Below, one piece after another: positions 141 through 13,264 of a DNA stretch of 13,264 nt. The notes beneath the pieces were generated by a model. It made no database searches, was not told the DNA's origin, and worked only from the letters and a program-made list of their open reading frames with translations. Position 1 is the stretch's first letter, and every line of letters starts with the position of its first letter. The DNA comes from a virus. Both the position numbers and the translations under genes were made by a program. Where the stretch lies: the IMG/VR virus record IMGVR_UViG_3300045988_145246; one strand, 5' to 3'.

Positions 141-165
141 AAAAAAGAAAGGCGGTAAACCGCCT
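141..165 (-). terminator. Intrinsic terminator for leftward (early) transcription, at the ITR boundary.
   Basis: On the minus strand the RNA reads AGGCGG-UUUA-CCGCCU (plus 150-165), a 6-bp GC-rich stem with a tetraloop. It is followed immediately by UUCUUUUUU (reverse complement of 141-149). Confidence 0.7.
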
Positions 166-233: not shown

Positions 234-262
234 ATTATATCACCCTCATAAATCTCTTTAAA
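234..262 (-). promoter_or_regulatory. Candidate extended -10 promoter firing leftward: TGaTATAAT with a weak -35 (TTTAAA) at 17-bp spacing.
   Basis: The reverse complement of 234-242 is tgatataat, a perfect TGnTATAAT. The reverse complement of 257-262 is tttaaa. It sits ~70-85 nt upstream of the 141-165 terminator. Confidence 0.3.
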
Positions 263-364
263 TAAAAATCTTTCCATTTTCTGTTATTTCTATAAACACA
301 CTGTATATATTTATTAGCATGTTTACATGTACTTTCATTAACACATCCCTTACATTCATTGTAT

Positions 365-484
365 TTATTCTTTATCATCTTTAAACCATCCTACAATAAT
401 ATCAATAGCAAGCAGCAACATTGTAACAATAAATATCCCTAAAGCACCTGTTAATAAATAATATAAAGTAAGAAATTCTCTCAT
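365..484 (-). CDS. Unannotated micro-ORF encoding a 39-aa single-pass membrane peptide (MREFLTLYYLLTGALGIFIVTMLLLAIDIIVGWFKDDKE). It is translationally coupled to the polymerase gene (ATGA overlap). It may be analogous to the phi29 p1 membrane protein encoded downstream of the polymerase.
   Basis: Hand translation of the reverse complement of 365-484. The ATG (482-484) overlaps the polymerase TGA stop (481-483). The peptide is one hydrophobic helix plus a charged tail. GGAGA lies 13 nt upstream. It is below the ORF-track size cut-off. Confidence 0.45.
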   Translation of the reverse strand: MREFLTLYYLLTGALGIFIVTMLLLAIDIIVGWFKDDKE

Positions 485-2544
485 AATCTTTTAATCTTCT
501 CCGTTTCTTTAAATAAGTTCCAATTTTCGGCATCCATCAGAACTCTGCTATACTCGTCTGTGATACCAATTTCATAGGTTGTCGGTCGTAGCACAATGTT
601 ACTTCTAATATCAATGTCATGACCTTCTTGTCCATCTGGATTATACATACCGTAATCCAGGTCATTGTAACGTGATTCCAGTTTTCCACAGTTCGAGAAA
701 ACGAAACCGATTTTAAAATTTTCCAGTGTTTTAAGTTCTTTAGCACCTTCTTTCTTTGGCACACCAGCAATGGTGATTCCGAATTTTCCGTCTTCATATT
801 CATATGCATATTTTTTCGCCCCCAATGTTTTGAATTCCTTGTATTTTCTCTCTTGTTCATAAACTCCTAGATAATGTGTTTTACCGAATGAATCAGTCGC
901 ATAACCTTTGTTATTTATACTCCTTTCTCTAATTTCATTGTTTAATTTTGTTATGTTATCCAAAATTTTGTTGTAATTGTCACTGATAATAAATTTCACA
1001 GAATCGGTATCACAGTAAACAAAATCATCACCCACAATGTTAATCATAAGTTTAAGATAATATCTAGCCCAACAGGTCACCCAACAACCCCATGCATATG
1101 ATAGAAAAGCTTTTTTATTATGTTTTTCCATAGCTTCATGTAAATCTTGCACAGGTTCAACTCTGAATGGTTTTTCACCATCATTGTATATGATCTCTGG
1201 TCTGATAGGATTTTGAGCACACATTCCATAAAGTGAATTAATGAGTTCTTTACTTTTCATGTAGTCAACTTCTTTTTCTTCAATGCCCTTTAGTTCTGTC
1301 TTATTTTTAAATAATGTGATAATCAGATTTCTTAATCCTTCTGGTAGGTAACCATATTTTGCAGTATAAACTGAAATGATTTCTATATCAAAATCATATT
1401 CGTTAATAATTATTTTATAATCAATATCAGTGAGTGATAAAACAATTCTATCACATGATAGCACTCTACCATTATCACATACAGGTTCTGACAGTTCTAA
1501 TGCTTTATCTTTGCTTATATATGGTGCACCATAGTAAACGTCTTTCTGACGAACATTTGTTAGTACAAATTTTCCGATAAAACATGAGTGTCGTCTTTCA
1601 CAAAGCTCAAGTAACTCATTAATATTATCAACCATACGTGGTGCAAAATTGCTCATTGGAAATTCACAGTTGAGCATCACATCTGGGTAACTACTCGCTC
1701 TATCCCAGCTGTCTACATTTTCCAGTATCTTATTTGAATGATACCGATTAGCGTGCGTATCACCGCCTCTGAATTCGTTTCGCAAAAGAATGTAAACAGT
1801 TTCATCGAAAAACATTTCATGTAACTGTTTATAGTTGAAGCTTTTCATAGCTTGTTTTGCTTTTCGTCTTACATATCCAGTGGACGTTAAAGGCAGACTA
1901 TAGAGAGTATCGCCATCATTATCCATTCTTTTTTTCATGGCTTCTACCAAACCTATGACATCATTTACTGAATATGCAATTTCATAGTTATCCATTTCAG
2001 TCCAGGGAAACCGTTTTTTGCTATAGTCAAATTTTTCACCACTTAATTTGCTGTGTTCCACTTTCATGTCACTGGTGAATTTTTTCAGACTTTTGTTGGT
2101 CTGTAGATAACTGCATCGAAAAACTATGTTATTAGATTTACAACTTAAAATTTTTCTACTTTTCAATGCAAAAACGTCGGTTATTTCTAACCAGTGCCGA
2201 AAGAACTGAAATTCATATGATAAGTTATGAACGAAAATTAAAGTTGATAAATATTCATCATTAATTTCATTAATCAGATTGACAAAAGAATTCCAGTTTC
2301 TATCATAGCAATAGTAGACGATTTCAGTTTCTAAATCCATCATTGCAAACTGCCATATGTACATAAAAGACTGTTCATTTTCTTTTTCGTATGTGGTTTC
2401 TATATCGAAGGCACAAATACACTTTCGGAAAGCGGTTTTATCCCATCTATGTCTGCCTTTAAAGTTTCTATCTGCTTTTACCCCCTTTACTAAATTTATC
2501 ATTTTTTGAACGTCTACTAAAGAAGTCTTTTCTGTACTCATCAT
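481..2544 (-). CDS. Protein-primed family-B DNA polymerase (phi29/PRD1/adenovirus class).
   Basis: Exo I FDIETT, Exo II HNLSYEFQF, Exo III YSVND, motif A DRASSYPD, motif B KELINSLYGMCAQN, motif C YCDTDS and a KKY (KxY) motif, all in canonical order. The polymerase sits at the end of a linear genome with ITRs. Confidence 0.95.
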   Translation of the reverse strand: MMSTEKTSLVDVQKMINLVKGVKADRNFKGRHRWDKTAFRKCICAFDIETTYEKENEQSFMYIWQFAMMDLETEIVYYCYDRNWNSFVNLINEINDEYLSTLIFVHNLSYEFQFFRHWLEITDVFALKSRKILSCKSNNIVFRCSYLQTNKSLKKFTSDMKVEHSKLSGEKFDYSKKRFPWTEMDNYEIAYSVNDVIGLVEAMKKRMDNDGDTLYSLPLTSTGYVRRKAKQAMKSFNYKQLHEMFFDETVYILLRNEFRGGDTHANRYHSNKILENVDSWDRASSYPDVMLNCEFPMSNFAPRMVDNINELLELCERRHSCFIGKFVLTNVRQKDVYYGAPYISKDKALELSEPVCDNGRVLSCDRIVLSLTDIDYKIIINEYDFDIEIISVYTAKYGYLPEGLRNLIITLFKNKTELKGIEEKEVDYMKSKELINSLYGMCAQNPIRPEIIYNDGEKPFRVEPVQDLHEAMEKHNKKAFLSYAWGCWVTCWARYYLKLMINIVGDDFVYCDTDSVKFIISDNYNKILDNITKLNNEIRERSINNKGYATDSFGKTHYLGVYEQERKYKEFKTLGAKKYAYEYEDGKFGITIAGVPKKEGAKELKTLENFKIGFVFSNCGKLESRYNDLDYGMYNPDGQEGHDIDIRSNIVLRPTTYEIGITDEYSRVLMDAENWNLFKETEKIKRL

Positions 2545-2977
2545 ATCTTTCTAATAACTCCTTTTTGCTTAGTTCTGGATTTTCCTGATAAATATTGATG
2601 GCTCTTTCACTATCGTAAATAGTTCCGATAGAGAATTCACGCACTGATTCCATGAAATCTTCAAATCTTCTTATATCTTTAATATTTCTTACTCTGTCTT
2701 TTCCTAGTTCCTGTTGTAACCATGTAACACGTTCTTTTCTTTTTCGTTTTCGTTCTGCCTGCGTCCAGTTTATCTGATTAGCCTTTTCTGCTTCTTTCAT
2801 AGCATATGCCAAATCTCTTGAATCCTTTAACTGACTTACTGGTTTCAAACGCTCTTTATAGTAATTGATAGTGTTTTGGATGTCTCTACCATAAGGGCTT
2901 TTTTCAAGTTTTTTTATCTTTTGTAAAACCTGTTTTCTCAAGTTGCTATAACTGGCTTGCTTTTGCTTTTTAGTCAT
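2468..2977 (-). CDS. 169-aa strongly basic (K/R-rich, coiled-coil ERKRKRKER) protein immediately upstream of the polymerase. It is a candidate terminal (priming) protein or another DNA-binding replication protein.
   Basis: Its position relative to the polymerase matches the TP-pol arrangement of phi29-like phages. The 3' end overlaps the polymerase 5' end by 77 nt out of frame. I recognise no diagnostic motif. It is small for a terminal protein. Confidence 0.4.
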   Translation of the reverse strand: MTKKQKQASYSNLRKQVLQKIKKLEKSPYGRDIQNTINYYKERLKPVSQLKDSRDLAYAMKEAEKANQINWTQAERKRKRKERVTWLQQELGKDRVRNIKDIRRFEDFMESVREFSIGTIYDSERAINIYQENPELSKKELLERYDEYRKDFFSRRSKNDKFSKGGKSR

Positions 2978-3137
2978 TTTTATTCAATCTTCTTTCTTTT
3001 ATAAACTCTTTAAAGATTTTAGAATCATTAATCAAAATACCTATAGTACTGCTAACACTTCTGTTGTTCTCAAGAGCATACTGCTTTAATGCTGTTAGCA
3101 TTTCAATGTCAAAATTGATTGATGTAGTTGTTTTCAT
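2970..3137 (-). CDS. Unannotated 55-aa ribbon-helix-helix (Arc/MetJ/CopG-type) DNA-binding regulator (MKTTTSINFDIEMLTALKQYALENNRSVSSTIGILINDSKIFKEFIKERRLNKND).
   Basis: I verified the codon-by-codon translation of the reverse complement of 2970-3137. The order is an N-terminal beta-strand (SINFDIEM), then helix A (LTALKQYALENN), then NRSVSS..I helix B, which is the RHH signature (compare Arc ..NGRSVNSEI..). AAGGGGG RBS lies 9 nt upstream. Its TAA stop overlaps the ATG of the next gene. It is below the ORF-track cut-off. Confidence 0.6.
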   Translation of the reverse strand: MKTTTSINFDIEMLTALKQYALENNRSVSSTIGILINDSKIFKEFIKERRLNKND

Positions 3138-3153
3138 TTTTTGTCGCCCCCTT

Positions 3154-3408
3154 TTATTCCACTGTGATTATTTGATTATTTATTGTTTTAATGCTCAAAG
3201 ATAAAAATGAACAAATAAGATAATCATAGGAGGAATCGTTTTCAGAGTAAATTTCAAATTGTTCTGATGCAATATCATATGCTAGAATATATTCCACTGT
3301 ATTAAATTTAATTTCATTGATAGTTATAAATTTGTTAGTTTCCCACAAATTAAATAAATAATTTTTTAATTCATCTTCATCATAAAAGTTTTTTATATTA
3401 TTTTCCAT
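3154..3408 (-). CDS. 84-aa very acidic small early protein (net charge about -10, no Arg). Candidate DNA-mimic anti-defence protein.
   Basis: ORF with a strong RBS (AAAGGAGGTGATAAATA-ATG). About 17 D/E against 7 K. Early leftward operon, immediately upstream of the RHH regulator. Confidence 0.65.
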   Translation of the reverse strand: MENNIKNFYDEDELKNYLFNLWETNKFITINEIKFNTVEYILAYDIASEQFEIYSENDSSYDYLICSFLSLSIKTINNQIITVE

Positions 3409-3500
3409 TATTTATCACCTCCTTTCGTATTATCATACCATTCAGCTAAAATTATTAGCCAGATACCTGCACAAATTCCTAACAAAAATGAAGCTATCAT
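3408..3500 (-). CDS. Unannotated micro-ORF encoding a 30-aa single-TM peptide (MIASFLLGICAGIWLIILAEWYDNTKGGDK). ATGA-coupled to the upstream gene, and its TAATG junction overlaps the downstream gene.
   Basis: Hand-verified translation of the reverse complement of 3408-3500. The ATG overlaps the TGA of the 82-aa ORF. Its 3' end carries the RBS of the next gene. Confidence 0.4.
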   Translation of the reverse strand: MIASFLLGICAGIWLIILAEWYDNTKGGDK

Positions 3501-3745
3501 AATATCACCTTATAAGAATGATCAGTAGAGATACTTTTTATATGTGATGAAATTATACCACAGATAAAAGCCCCATCATTGGCATATATTTTAATAAAGT
3601 TGTTCGGTGTTTCGTCAGTAGTTTTATCAAAATAAATCTTTGTTTCATTAGTTAAAAATGATATCTCATTAATGTTTACAACTACCTCATTTTTCCATCC
3701 GTCTGTTAAAATTGCTACTAATTTTTCTCTAGTTTTGATTGTCAT
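3497..3745 (-). CDS. 82-aa hypothetical early protein, first gene of the leftward operon.
   Basis: ORF with RBS AAAGGAAA 8 nt before the ATG. Function not recognisable. Confidence 0.65.
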   Translation of the reverse strand: MTIKTREKLVAILTDGWKNEVVVNINEISFLTNETKIYFDKTTDETPNNFIKIYANDGAFICGIISSHIKSISTDHSYKVIL

Positions 3746-3798
3746 TGTATTATTTTCCTTTCTTTAACTACTTTGTTTTCTTGTTCCTTACAAGTATT

Positions 3799-3827
3799 AT
3801 AATATCACAAGTGCTATTAAATGTCAA
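3799..3827 (-). promoter_or_regulatory. Candidate leftward early promoter: -35 TTGACA (reverse complement of 3822-3827), 17-bp spacer, -10 TATTAT (reverse complement of 3799-3804). Alternatively, a perfect TATAAT (reverse complement of 3796-3801) at 20-bp spacing.
   Basis: Read on the minus strand. It lies in the 239-bp divergent intergenic region upstream of the 3745 start. It overlaps a 10-bp palindrome TATTATAATA (3795-3804). Confidence 0.4.
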
Positions 3828-3879
3828 TAACTTTCAACAACTTTTTAGAAAAAATTCTTTCCTTATTATATACACCAAA

Positions 3880-3940
3880 ACAAGCACTAAAATAAAAACC
3901 TAAATTTCCTATTGACAATAAACATAAACAATGCTATAAT
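3880..3940 (+). promoter_or_regulatory. Strong rightward sigma-A promoter: -35 TTGACA (3912-3917), 17-bp spacer, -10 TATAAT (3935-3940), with A-tract UP-element-like sequence upstream (3880-3911).
   Basis: Perfect consensus hexamers at optimal spacing. It is followed by a ~38-nt A-rich leader and an AAAGGAG RBS for the 3985 ORF. Confidence 0.75.
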
Positions 3941-3984
3941 AACAATGTAAACAAAAACAACACAAAATAAAAGGAGAACAAAGC

Positions 3985-4206
3985 ATGACAAGAACCATCA
4001 TTACAACACATTACAAAGCTACAACCCCATCCGGTGAAGTTGTAGAAGGTGAAGTTATCACCTCAATGTCAGGCAGACAGCTTGTAAAGTACATTAAAAA
4101 AGTACATGGCATTGAAGAATTTGAACTTTCAACTCACTACACTAGTGACAAGTATGAACTTTCTGATGAAGACTTCATCAGATATGCTACAAAAGTAGAA
4201 AAATAA
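3985..4206 (+). CDS. 73-aa small acidic hypothetical protein, first rightward gene.
   Basis: ORF with RBS AAAAGGAGAACAAAGC-ATG. No recognisable domain. Confidence 0.65.
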   Translation: MTRTIITTHYKATTPSGEVVEGEVITSMSGRQLVKYIKKVHGIEEFELSTHYTSDKYELSDEDFIRYATKVEK

Positions 4207-4363: not shown

Positions 4364-4723
4364 ATGGAAATCGTAAAAACAAACATCATGGACAACGAAT
4401 GGAACATGGATATCAGTTATGATATGTTTGAAAGTCCAGACCGTCAGTCAGTAAAAGACAACAGTGGGGAAATTGCAACAATCCAGAAATTTGCCATCTA
4501 TGAAGAGTATGATAATACTGGAAATGTTATGCGATTGTTAACAATGCTTACCATTACTGGTAATGTATATGTTACTTCTTCACCTGCATTTATCCGCACA
4601 TTTGAAAGAATTGCGGAACTAGCACAGCGTTCTCATTTAGACACATTCACAATCACATTCAGAAAAGAAAAAAGCAAAAACAACCGTGAGTACATGACAG
4701 CAATATATGTTAAAGAATCTTAA
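4364..4723 (+). CDS. 119-aa hypothetical protein.
   Basis: ORF with RBS AAAAAGGAGAACAAAT-ATG, nearly identical in context to the 3985 RBS. Its 3' end overlaps the ATPase gene start by 17 nt. Confidence 0.7.
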   Translation: MEIVKTNIMDNEWNMDISYDMFESPDRQSVKDNSGEIATIQKFAIYEEYDNTGNVMRLLTMLTITGNVYVTSSPAFIRTFERIAELAQRSHLDTFTITFRKEKSKNNREYMTAIYVKES

Positions 4724-5765
4724 ACTATACAACGAACAAGGATATCTAAATTTTAAGGGGATAGTCGAACAAGGCTATCCCTTTAATTTTATCTGGGGCG
4801 GTCGTGGAACAGGTAAAACTTTCGGGGCATTAGAATATTGCATAAAAAATAAACAAGTGTTCATGTACTCACGAACAAAACAGACACAGTTAGACATCAT
4901 CAAAAACCCCGAACTTACACCAGTTAAAGCAATCAATGATTACCGTCGCACCAATATCCAGCCATTTCCAATATCCAAAATCGCAGGGTTCTATAATTGT
5001 GTTGTAAATGAAGAAGGAAAGAACATTCCAGACGGATTACCTCTAGGATATGCGTCAGCTATCAGTACAATTTCCAACCTACGAGGATTCTCAGCAGAAG
5101 ACGTTAAAATCTGGATATATGATGAGTTCATTCCTCAGAAGGGGGATAAAGTACAACGTGGGGTAGCGGAATCGTTTCTGCATGGTTACGAAACAATGAA
5201 CCGTAACCGTGAGTTGCAGGGCAAACCCCCCATACAGGTGTTCTGTCTTTCCAACAGTGACAATGTAGGTTGTGAGCTATTCGCTCAGTTAGGATTAATC
5301 CGAAAAGTATCAGAAATGTCACGGAAAAAACGTGAAACATATTACATTAAAGACAGAGGTATCGCATTATATAATCTGTGTAACTCTCCTATTTCCAAAC
5401 TTAAGGCAGAAACCTCACTCTATAAAATGACAGGAAAAGACAGCGGTTTTGCACAACTGTCACTGGAAAATGAATTTTTCGACATGGATTTCTCAGACGT
5501 AAAACCCCAAAACTTAACTGAATATGTCCCACTTCTGTTCTTCGGGGAAATTGCAATATATACCCATAAGTCTCAGGAAAAACTCTATGTCTGCAAACAC
5601 AGACAAGGCACACCAGAGGAATGCTACAATGCAGTAACCGACAAAGCTATTTTGGCACTCAAACGGAAATACTCCTGGATATGGAATATATACTACCTCA
5701 ACGATCTCATCTATTTTTCCGACCTTGAATCGAAGTATCTACTTGACACTTATTTCCACATGTGA
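4707..5765 (+). CDS. DNA packaging (encapsidation) ATPase of the phi29 gp16 type.
   Basis: Arginine-containing Walker A FIWGGRGTGKTF (compare phi29 gp16 GARGIGKS, from memory). Walker B IWIYDEF. A downstream NRNRE...CLSN block that I recall as conserved in gp16 (NRERVRCICLSN). Similar size (352 aa). Confidence 0.85.
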   Translation: MLKNLKLYNEQGYLNFKGIVEQGYPFNFIWGGRGTGKTFGALEYCIKNKQVFMYSRTKQTQLDIIKNPELTPVKAINDYRRTNIQPFPISKIAGFYNCVVNEEGKNIPDGLPLGYASAISTISNLRGFSAEDVKIWIYDEFIPQKGDKVQRGVAESFLHGYETMNRNRELQGKPPIQVFCLSNSDNVGCELFAQLGLIRKVSEMSRKKRETYYIKDRGIALYNLCNSPISKLKAETSLYKMTGKDSGFAQLSLENEFFDMDFSDVKPQNLTEYVPLLFFGEIAIYTHKSQEKLYVCKHRQGTPEECYNAVTDKAILALKRKYSWIWNIYYLNDLIYFSDLESKYLLDTYFHM

Positions 5766-11764: not shown

Positions 11765-13057
11765 ATGGCTTTTTGGAATAATTTTCCTTTTACCAATTTC
11801 CATGAACTTAATTTAGATTGGATTATTGGAAAAGTGAAAGCTTTGGAAACAGGTTTCATGAATGTAGTTAAGAAAGTAGATGATGCCTTAGCAGAAATCA
11901 AAAAAGAAGTAGATGATGCTATCCAGCAAATTCCGACAAAGGTAGATAATTTACTGACAGAATGGAAAGATGATGGTACACTTGGAACAATGATTGATAC
12001 CATTTACGGTGGACTTTCCTATCTCGATGTAATGAAAGATAAAACTATCTACGTTTTGGGAGACAGCTTGAGTGATGGGCAAGCACCCCGAAGCTGGGTG
12101 ACAGAATTTGAAAAATTGCTTGTCGGAAAAAACTGCCACGTTATGAATGGGGCACACTCGGGCGATACCATGGCAGAACAGTATGCCATTTTTGATAGGA
12201 ATATGACATTGCACCCTGAAAATGTACCAGATATTCTGATTGTATGGTGTGGTGTTAATGATGTTAAGAAACAGACAAGCTTAACTGATTTAGGGGCTAC
12301 CATGGATAGCATTAGAAACAAAATTCAGTCTATTAATGCAGCTTGTCAGGTTTACCTTTTTAGCACGTATAAAAATTACCGTGTTTTACCGGATCAGTGG
12401 ATTATTCCACAAACTGCATATTGGAGATATTTCAGTCAGTATGCACAGCAGAACGGATGGACTTTTGTGGACATGTTTGCTTATGCACCTGTAATCTCAC
12501 CAGAGACAGACCGTATGAGAGCAGAATTTTACGAAGAACAGAACAGCGGATATTTGCATTATACAGTGAGATATACTAAGATTCTTGCTAGATTTATTCT
12601 CAATGTTTTGTGTACTGGTATGCCGATTGCTTTAGGGGATTATTGGGAACGTGTCAATGGAAACTATCTGGATGGTGCAAAAATTTTTACAAACAAGGAA
12701 GAATTTGACCCGAACTTAAATGGTAGTCATATCCGATTCGGAACCCGGTTTGTGAAAATCAGAATTGCAGGAACATTTAAACCTAAAAACACATCTTCAT
12801 TACAGTATGTTAAAATTGGAAAGCTACCAGATTTTCTGATTCCAGCTTCTACAATTTATGGTCTTGCGTATCGAGGTGGTGGTTGGGGTTCTACTGGTGC
12901 AAACGCTACTTTTGGAACATTGGTAGATAGCGACGGTTCTCTGTTGGTACATCCACTTGCGAAAGAAGGAACAAGTTATACATCTACAACTATTTATTTT
13001 GACATTTACATTTTTGACCTTGCAACTGACTGGCAGAGGAAACAGACAGTTTCTTAA
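11765..13057 (+). CDS. 430-aa tail fibre/appendage-like protein with a central SGNH/GDSL esterase domain. The N-terminus is a coiled-coil virion anchor and the C-terminus a beta-rich domain.
   Basis: Block I YVLGDSLSDG (nucleophile Ser), block II NGAHSGDT, block III WCGVNDV, and block V His in SGYLHYT with the Asp position replaced by Ser. Perfect RBS AAGGAGGTATAAAT-ATG. It is the last gene before the right ITR, where phi29 has gp12. Confidence 0.7.
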   Translation: MAFWNNFPFTNFHELNLDWIIGKVKALETGFMNVVKKVDDALAEIKKEVDDAIQQIPTKVDNLLTEWKDDGTLGTMIDTIYGGLSYLDVMKDKTIYVLGDSLSDGQAPRSWVTEFEKLLVGKNCHVMNGAHSGDTMAEQYAIFDRNMTLHPENVPDILIVWCGVNDVKKQTSLTDLGATMDSIRNKIQSINAACQVYLFSTYKNYRVLPDQWIIPQTAYWRYFSQYAQQNGWTFVDMFAYAPVISPETDRMRAEFYEEQNSGYLHYTVRYTKILARFILNVLCTGMPIALGDYWERVNGNYLDGAKIFTNKEEFDPNLNGSHIRFGTRFVKIRIAGTFKPKNTSSLQYVKIGKLPDFLIPASTIYGLAYRGGGWGSTGANATFGTLVDSDGSLLVHPLAKEGTSYTSTTIYFDIYIFDLATDWQRKQTVS

Positions 13058-13135: not shown

Positions 13136-13264
13136 GAACAAAATGGACTAAAATGCTGTTCGCCCAGGAGAGACAAATTGGCTCGAGTGTGTGCGTGACA
13201 GACAGACACTGGTGTCCGTGGGGGAAAGACAAATGTCCGCCGTACACGGATACCTATATAGGCG
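13134..13264. repeat. Right inverted terminal repeat, partner of 1-131. The hairpin seen at the left end is degraded here (gtcttt instead of gtccgt).
   Basis: Direct comparison of the reverse complement with the left end. Identical landmarks include ctcgag at 79-84 and 13181-13186, and tcctgggcgaacag. Confidence 0.9.

Follow-up and report, generated by a model that had tools for sequence, protein, structure and literature searches.

Organisation of the locus

IMG/VR virus record IMGVR_UViG_3300045988_145246, a stretch of 13,264 bp that is called the window below, is the complete linear genome of a protein-primed, phi29-like gut phage. The subject here is a cassette of four small genes on its minus strand, which lies between a strong early promoter, P_L, and the genes for replication. 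Reading leftward from P_L, the order is p82, tm30, ac84, the gene of a ribbon-helix-helix (RHH) protein, the gene of a putative terminal protein (TP) and that of a family-B DNA polymerase (PolB). The first gene, p82 (3497-3745), encodes a protein of 82 aa with a net charge of -1, tm30 (3408-3500) a single-pass membrane peptide of 30 aa, ac84 (3154-3408) an acidic protein of 84 aa, and the RHH gene (2970-3137) a predicted DNA-binding protein of 55 aa that resembles Arc, CopG and CdbA. An original prediction, made from the sequence of this stretch, had described minus-strand open reading frames (ORFs) of 82, 30, 84 and 55 aa; all four were confirmed at these positions, as was the composition of the 84-aa product, which has a net charge of -10 and no Arg (5 Asp and 10 Glu, 5 Lys).

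The genes are tightly packed. The p82 stop and the tm30 start overlap as ATGA, the tm30 stop and the ac84 start as TAATG, the gap of 16 nt between ac84 and the RHH gene contains a GGGGG Shine-Dalgarno sequence, and in the window the RHH gene overlaps the putative TP gene by 8 nt. A Shine-Dalgarno sequence is present at each start in the operon. Since start and stop codons touch or overlap in this way, the cassette belongs to a single operon that reaches the putative TP and the polymerase, with a gene packing that looks suited to translational coupling. The putative TP gene (2468-2977, minus strand) encodes a basic protein of 169 aa and is assigned by position only; it overlaps the polymerase gene by 77 nt, and its product matched no Pfam or PHROG family and is 30% identical to the protein in the equivalent position of the related genome L006. 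The last long gene of the operon (481-2544, minus strand) encodes the 687-aa protein-primed PolB (Pfam DNA_pol_B_2, 1e-9; PHROG 1907, 6e-64).

Close relatives were drawn from IMG/VR and public metagenome assemblies, with genomes of about 13 kb and PolB identities of 86-99%. The genomes examined in the window's clade are L001-L005, L008 and L012-L017, those of a sister clade are L006 and L009-L011, and L018-L020 are distant deposited genomes. The sister clade has about 52% PolB identity to the window and carries all its genes on one strand. All four small ORFs are real genes and not chance ORFs, because they are conserved in relatives and because of their ratios of nonsynonymous to synonymous change (dN/dS), which are about 0.1 for tm30, 0.1-0.5 for the RHH gene, about 0.5 for p82 and 0.18-0.57 for ac84 when it is compared with its distant homologues.

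The W-domain proteins and the membrane peptide

By sequence comparison, p82 and ac84 are paralogues. Each is a version of the same domain, which is restricted to the clade and measures about 70 aa, and the two are 29% identical over 72 residues, with a pairwise BLASTP E value of 9e-6. The original prediction had listed three small proteins in the cassette; all three genes are real, but those of the 82-aa and 84-aa products are not independent of each other. The domain, called the W-domain here, has the invariant pattern W-x7-IN-x3-F...I in family alignments and is predicted to consist of an N-terminal helix followed by 5-6 beta-strands. Three subtypes were distinguished, namely A (ac84-like), B and C (p82-like), so that the window holds one C-type and one A-type copy.

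Searches with a hidden Markov model (HMM) found the W-domain in all examined genomes of the clade, in one to three copies each, some of them fused (145-164 aa) or reordered. The window, L012 and L015 have a C copy, then tm30, then an A copy. In L002 a protein of 148 aa combines A and B and precedes a B copy that stands on its own, in L003 and L005 the domain occurs solely as A+B fusions, and L004 keeps its A and B copies separate; L008 has only A, and L013 and L014 have only C. Copy number, order and fusion therefore vary among genomes with about 86-92% polymerase identity. Far from common, the family comprises 56 clusters in 5.8 billion proteins, and an exhaustive HMM search of 1.84 billion representatives returned 16 matches, 15 of which resemble the family in sequence and length. 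The 597-aa protein P0180, which scored in nine stretches (E 3e-12), was judged spurious, being a translation of tandem-repeat DNA and not a true homologue.

Known families gave no counterpart. No match to p82, tm30 or ac84, singly or as a family, was found in Pfam or PHROG, none to the W-domain family profile was found in the PDB, and tblastn of ac84 against GenBank phages gave no meaningful match. The W-domain was not detected in the genomes of the sister clade; by hhalign, the product of that clade's first gene aligned with a probability of 12.7%, at which homology is unproven, and its 122-aa membrane protein gave no match. An observation on a more distant genome may be set beside this. In L020 (MT837693.1), whose PolB is 47% identical, positions 124-619, upstream of a TP-like gene, encode a tandem pair of early paralogues, each of about 88 aa (MKQGxWTxxxLE...LIDTxxYxGKKY), so duplicated small early proteins recur there in a different family.

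The acidity of ac84 had led to the proposal that it is a DNA mimic acting in host takeover or anti-defence, with the uracil-DNA glycosylase (UDG) inhibitor p56 of phi29 as the precedent. The acidity stands, and the strong negative charge expected of DNA mimics is indeed found in ac84 (-10 in 84 aa), among the W-domain proteins in the A type only. Even there it is variable, as the net charge ranges from -4 to -10 among A-type orthologues that are 71-92% identical and falls to -4 in one that is 80% identical, and the B and C types lie between about -4 and +3. The proposed structural comparison with the Ocr, ArdA, p56 and anti-CRISPR (Acr) folds produced no match, and neither sequence nor fold linked ac84 to these or to Ugi. 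More generally, searches of Pfam, PHROG, the PDB and BFVD with ac84 brought up neither a family nor a fold known for Acr, anti-restriction or DNA-mimic proteins, and BFVD returned nothing at E <=0.1. For the operon as a whole, no acr or other anti-defence gene was found when p82, tm30 and ac84 were compared with Pfam, PHROG, the PDB and GenBank phages, searches that did not include a dedicated Acr or anti-defence HMM library. The negative fold test weakens the DNA-mimic idea, with the reservation that mimics have diverse folds. Charge is the sole basis of that idea, as charge and timing are of the analogy with p56, to which ac84 has no detectable similarity, and both the DNA-mimic and the Aca labels are unproven. 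Homology of ac84 to a single-stranded DNA-binding protein (SSB) or to phi29 p6 was also considered, and there was none; weak SSB-like and p6-like candidates are encoded elsewhere (4364-4723 and 3985-4206).

Between the two W-domain genes lies tm30, with the hydrophobic core IASFLLGICAGIWLIILA and a conserved motif, LAEWYDNTKGGDK, that is also the N-terminus of the 122-aa protein of the sister clade. It would be a conserved core partner. The last codons of tm30 (KGGDK, AAAGGAGGTGATAAA, 3408-3425) are at the same time the Shine-Dalgarno sequence of the next gene, namely ac84 in the window and, in L002-L004, the RHH gene. Because these codons have a double duty, part of the conservation at the C-terminus of tm30 may be at the nucleotide level.

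The ribbon-helix-helix protein

The identification of the 55-aa product as an RHH protein, put forward in the original prediction, was supported by a PDB profile search, by Pfam matches over the family, by structure prediction and by structural comparison, and on these sequence and model data it is genuine. Taken alone, the window's sequence gives sub-threshold matches (DUF6364, 1e-3; RHH_5, 0.08; Arc, 0.12; PHROG Arc-like repressor, 3e-3) and scores below the Pfam gathering threshold (20 vs 27.3 bits). A profile of six orthologues searched against the PDB found CdbA (8e-5) and Arc (0.05), followed by HP0222, MatP and E73. Across the family, 25 of 39 members match DUF6364 and 15 of 39 match RHH_5, and others match Antitox_RHH, RHH_4 or Arc. 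The AlphaFold2 model (pLDDT 89.8) has an extended segment at residues 1-10, two helices (11-23, 28-38) and, as an addition at the C-terminus, a helix at 40-52. When it was compared with the PDB using Foldseek, all of the top 50 matches were RHH-type DNA-binding proteins or domains (CdbA, MatP, Arc, CopG, SvtR and antitoxins), with probabilities up to 0.99 and TM-scores up to 0.80 on the target; the Foldseek E values are non-significant because the protein is so short.

At 90% identity the family comprises no fewer than 122 clusters, every one of them from contigs of <=13.5 kb, and one member that is 65% identical, P0097, bears the nr name "Transcriptional repressor arc". No meaningful match was found by tblastn of the RHH protein against GenBank phages. 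Within the Arc/CopG superfamily the protein is a new and clade-restricted member, and as a regulator it is ordinary. Conservation in relatives had been named as a critical point, and the gene proved conserved and intact in every relative examined. It lies directly upstream of the putative TP gene, with PolB following, in L001-L005, L008 and L012-L017 and also in the sister genomes L006 and L009-L011, where the RHH sequence forms the C-terminal half of a 96-107-aa protein in the equivalent position. Among the distant deposited genomes L018-L020, no RHH gene directly upstream of a TP-like gene was found. The first ORF of L019 (MT836263.1, 120-287) encodes 55 aa starting MKKITITLTDDDV and has an RHH-like look, at a place that does not adjoin the TP-like gene.

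The RHH protein had been proposed to be an Aca-like repressor. The fold agrees, and the protein is likely to repress its own operon, but its coupling to TP and PolB and its conservation independent of the cargo upstream point elsewhere. Because the RHH gene is kept together with TP and the polymerase in two clades, one of them without a detectable W-domain, it appears to regulate the replication operon as one of its core genes rather than to be an accessory aca; and because it is conserved even where no W-domain was detected, it would not be dedicated to ac84. Aca1-13 are helix-turn-helix proteins, which this protein is not. An RHH-type Aca (Aca14, WP_005725436.1) was reported in 2026, and it binds an inverted repeat at the -10 box (bioRxiv 10.64898/2026.07.27.740549).

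Promoters and candidate operators

The intergenic region 3746-3984 holds two promoters back to back, both of a near-perfect sigma-A type, which bears out the divergent promoter region of the original prediction. The leftward early promoter, P_L (3827..3799, minus strand), has the -35 box TTGACA at 3827..3822, a 17-nt spacer and an extended -10 box, TG-n-TATTAT, and agrees with the consensus at 11 of 12 positions. The divergent promoter P_R (3912-3940, plus strand), TTGACA-17-TATAAT with TG, agrees at all 12 and drives the genes of the p6-like protein, the SSB-like protein and the gp16-type ATPase as well as the structural genes. Across 10 related genomes both promoters are invariant or nearly so.

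Two elements at P_L are candidate operators. One is a perfect palindrome, CTTGT-N5-ACAAG (3780-3794), at about -2 to +13 of P_L, which is the sole exact match in the genome and is invariant in nine of the 10 genomes, L008 having a 1-nt deletion. A third CTTGT copy lies in the P_L spacer (3807-3811), and together with the palindrome it makes up a cluster that is unique, since nowhere else in the genome do three or more CTTGT/ACAAG occur within 40 nt. As a hairpin stabilising the 5' terminus of the mRNA the palindrome was considered and set aside, being weak (-3.2 kcal/mol, z -1.1). The other candidate is a tandem direct repeat of 10 nt, TCAATAACTT/TCAACAACTT (reverse complement AAGTTGTTGA/AAGTTATTGA), at 3824-3843, which overlaps the -35 box of P_L and is a perfect repeat in L002, L004, L005 and L013. 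At the equivalent site, the sister clade has different tandem repeats, of a GGTATT type, and the beta-strand sequence of its RHH protein is also different. In L009, L010, L011 and L006, two to four tandem repeats of the GTTTGGTATT type precede and overlap the early promoter, some 100 nt ahead of the first gene, and these may be operators for that clade's divergent RHH protein. Between the two promoters of the window there is a third conserved block (3853-3876; reverse complement GGTGTATATAATAAGGAAAGAATT), kept in the 10-genome alignment, which resembles the -10/+1 part of P_L without CTTGTA and could serve as another leftward promoter or as the site of a regulator.

Evolution of ac84

Five A-type genes for which DNA was at hand were compared for dN/dS. 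Pairwise values for ac84 run from 0.6 to 4.6, against 0.10-0.15 for the putative TP in the same genome pairs, as far as these are informative, and 0.07-0.14 for TP and polymerase. Between the window and L015 there are seven nonsynonymous and no synonymous changes in ac84, and between L015 and L017 there are 20 and one; the ratio of nonsynonymous to synonymous changes differs from that of the flanks at p 5e-6. L015 otherwise matches the window at 98-100% identity and diverges most in ac84, where the seven changes mostly alter charge. In L001, the nearest relative, with a 99% identical polymerase, a 1-nt deletion frameshifts the gene, and it is absent from L013 and L014.

At the same time, synonymous divergence (pS) in ac84 is several-fold under that of the adjacent genes, as between the window and L012 (0.09 vs 0.43-0.49), and over four pairs it is lower than in the flanks with Fisher p from 3e-6 to 6e-3. 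The A-type gene thus appears to have been exchanged recently between phages, with fast protein evolution thereafter. In its manner of change ac84 resembles an arms-race gene, and such a role is plausible. The possibility that low synonymous divergence marks a non-coding nucleotide element was rejected on account of protein homologues at 30-41% identity, a strong Shine-Dalgarno sequence and a foldable model. The frame of 84 codons is free of indels in the window and in five full-length homologues (71-92% identical), in a sequence that is AT-rich; the substitutions are patchy, with the blocks YLFNLWETN, INEIKF, SEQFEIYSEND and TINNQII fixed; and nucleotide divergence overall, at about 13%, is far under the synonymous divergence of the flanks.

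Interpretation of the operon

The reading that is judged fairly probable is that the cassette forms the promoter-proximal part of a single leftward early operon, in which the RHH protein is the autorepressor of the replication operon and the W-domain proteins are early accessory proteins. The host sigma-A RNA polymerase would fire P_L on phage entry, and the operon would yield the W-domain proteins, tm30, the RHH protein, the putative terminal protein and the polymerase. As it accumulates, the RHH protein, as a dimer or a higher oligomer, would bind the repeats at P_L and curb its own operon after the initial burst, with the tandem 10-mer over the -35 box, the palindrome at +1 or both as candidate sites, and it may affect the divergent P_R as well. 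Repression would be exerted in the manner of P22 Arc at P_ant, of CopG or of Aca, from the genomic position that the unrelated p4 has in phi29. The W-domain proteins, especially those of the acidic and rapidly diversifying A type, would have their effect early, on a partner that varies and is most likely a factor of the host or else of a competing phage, and may be regarded as candidates for host takeover or anti-defence.

Several points weigh against this reading. Repression, operators and host target are all inferred from sequence. A search for operator-like repeats near P_L had been suggested, and candidate repeats and a palindrome are there, but none of them is statistically decisive alone: the palindrome by itself is non-significant, with a chance expectation of 0.77 when one mismatch is allowed, and the entire promoter region is conserved in the 10-genome alignment, not just the candidate operators. 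All the clade genomes examined have one W-domain copy or more, which would suit a required function no less than an accessory one. Finally, the excess of dN/dS over 1 in ac84 is non-significant alone (binomial p 0.12), so that relaxed constraint on a redundant paralogue stays a rival.

That rival would make ac84 a decaying paralogue without a function of its own, its constraint relaxed after duplication and its acidity incidental. A dN/dS statistically indistinguishable from 1, the 1-nt frameshift in the closest relative L001 and the absence of the gene from several relatives are what decay would produce. However, the intact, indel-free frame in AT-rich sequence, the fixed blocks, the low overall nucleotide divergence set against the pS of the flanks and the purifying selection among distant A-type homologues (0.18-0.57) argue together against simple decay, which is held to be highly improbable. 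Another reading, also unlikely although somewhat less remote, is that the cassette supplies core replication-organising factors. In this case tm30 and the W-domain proteins would be functional counterparts of phi29 p1 and p16.7 that anchor or organise the protein-primed replication of the phage at the membrane, and the RHH protein would work as a p4-like early/late switch. The cassette shares the operon of TP and polymerase and lies directly upstream of them, the RHH gene has the position of phi29 gene 4, tm30 and the LAEWYDNTK motif are conserved in both clades under strong purifying selection, and no clade genome examined is devoid of the W-domain. Against such a function stand the shuffling of copy number, order and fusion at about 86-92% polymerase identity, the dN/dS of ac84 of about 1 or above, its frameshift in L001 and its absence from L013 and L014, and the want of any Pfam homology to p1, p16.7 or p4. 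Core replication partners also usually co-evolve slowly, as TP and polymerase do.

The locus had been described as having acr/aca-like architecture, and the specific model is a true acr-aca or anti-restriction locus. In it ac84, as a DNA mimic, would inhibit a DNA-binding defence enzyme of the host (restriction enzyme, UDG or Cas), with the RHH protein as its dedicated Aca. The layout does bear a resemblance. A strong early promoter precedes an acidic protein of net charge -10 without Arg, which is placed upstream of an RHH gene and evolves in an arms-race-like way with several charge-changing substitutions, and Aca14 provides a precedent for an RHH-type regulator that binds an inverted repeat at the -10 box (bioRxiv 10.64898/2026.07.27.740549). 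What tells against it is that no acr or anti-defence gene is supported by homology, that the acidity is only -4 in an 80%-identical orthologue and absent from the B and C paralogues, and that the RHH gene is coupled to the replication genes and conserved with TP and polymerase where no W-domain was detected, and so is not dedicated. This version is considered very unlikely.

To return to the operon with an autorepressor and accessory W-domain proteins, a bolder extension of it is speculative and on balance doubtful, namely that the W-x7-IN-x3-F domain marks a new family of early phage proteins that inhibit a defence or housekeeping factor of the host. Such a family would diversify by duplication, fusion, exchange and positive selection, its acidic A type would be a nucleic-acid or substrate mimic, and its expression would be tied to that of TP and polymerase through one RHH autorepressor. 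If this were true, a minimal phage of 13 kb would run anti-defence and replication from one self-limiting operon. Should the proteins of the hotspot inhibit host factors, uncultured phi29-like phages of the human gut would have yielded a new anti-defence or host-takeover family, and the RHH protein would be another non-HTH (helix-turn-helix) regulator of such genes. At present, what is at hand is a well-defined, uncharacterised ORFan family beside an ordinary regulator. The locus lays out the early program of one of the smallest tailed-phage genomes. A consensus promoter, a likely RHH repressor and the replication genes are its constant framework, and in a short hotspot upstream the members of a private small-protein family are exchanged and rearranged. 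It is this paralogous ORFan family, its hotspot behaviour and its fast-evolving acidic member that make up the interesting part.

Genome context

The genome is bounded by inverted terminal repeats (1-109 and 13156-13264) of 109 nt that are 92% complementary. The rightward operon encodes a 73-aa p6-like protein (3985-4206; a weak match to a PHROG dsDNA-binding protein, 3e-3), a 119-aa phi29-SSB-like protein (4364-4723; weak, Pfam 6.7e-5, below the cutoff) and the phi29 gp16-type packaging ATPase (4707-5765), all of them driven by P_R together with the structural genes. Phi29_MCP and connector domains were found in the collinear genes of relatives. No near-identical DNA was found among GenBank phages. 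Of the deposited genomes, unannotated contigs from human faeces and the Amedibacillus phages AD70P2 and AD70P3 come closest, with 37-47% PolB identity, and the host is probably a low-GC gut species of the Bacillota. Compared with the sister clade L006 and L009-L011, the left arm of the window from the early promoter to the polymerase (481-3830) is inverted.

At the left end (1-480) there is no long ORF. It contains minus-strand promoter-like sites at 262..234 (10/12, with TG), 385..358 and 454..426, a strong intrinsic terminator at 165..150, a stretch with a folding z of -2.3 (140-352) and a hydrophobic mini-ORF of 20 aa (MTVFIYAGILIFLLTLLIDSL) with a good Shine-Dalgarno sequence. An Rfam scan of the window, whose genome has a gp16-type ATPase, found neither the phi29 packaging RNA (pRNA) nor any other family, and a divergent packaging RNA could lie within 1-480. 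At the other end, the last large rightward gene (11765-13057, 430 aa) has versions in relatives that carry GDSL-lipase/esterase domains (PF13472, PF00657), which suggests a tail-associated esterase that attacks a cell-wall polymer.

Comparison with known systems

Sm-like and SH3-like small beta-barrels (Hfq, YaeO/Rof, SspB, the Pelota N-domain and WYL) were among the known systems considered for comparison; the Sm-like fold is one of an N-terminal helix and a bent beta-barrel of five strands. With acr-aca operons, those with Aca14 included, the window shares a strong early promoter, small, variable and fast-evolving ORFans followed by a small, here putative, DNA-binding autoregulator, and a candidate palindrome beside the -10 box. 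Unlike them, the window's operon has no homologue of a known Acr or anti-defence protein, and its regulator is followed by essential genes (putative TP and PolB) and is conserved independently of the cargo.

With P22 Arc, CopG and CdbA, the window's RHH protein has in common the beta-alpha-alpha fold of the model, the sequence profile and the small size (55 aa), as well as a gene within the operon that it presumably represses and repeats that overlap the promoter. It differs from them in the extra C-terminal helix (40-52), in an operator that is a candidate, in its likely translational coupling to the replication genes of a protein-primed phage and in forming its own clade-restricted family, which scores below the Pfam gathering threshold.

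The p4 protein of phi29 is structurally unrelated to RHH proteins, and the window's regulator, an RHH protein by prediction, differs from p4 in fold; no match to the p4 family was found for it in Pfam, nor was Pfam homology to p1, p16.7 or p4 found for any cassette protein. In position, the likeness is closer. As in the early left operon of phi29 (6-5-4-3-2), there are divergent early and late promoters and small accessory early proteins, and a small transcription-factor gene stands immediately upstream of the TP and polymerase genes, as gene 4 does in the phi29 gene order (consistent with the review PMC11476376). In phi29 the p6 and SSB genes belong with the polymerase to the early left operon, whereas in the window their weakly matching counterparts are on the rightward operon together with the packaging ATPase.

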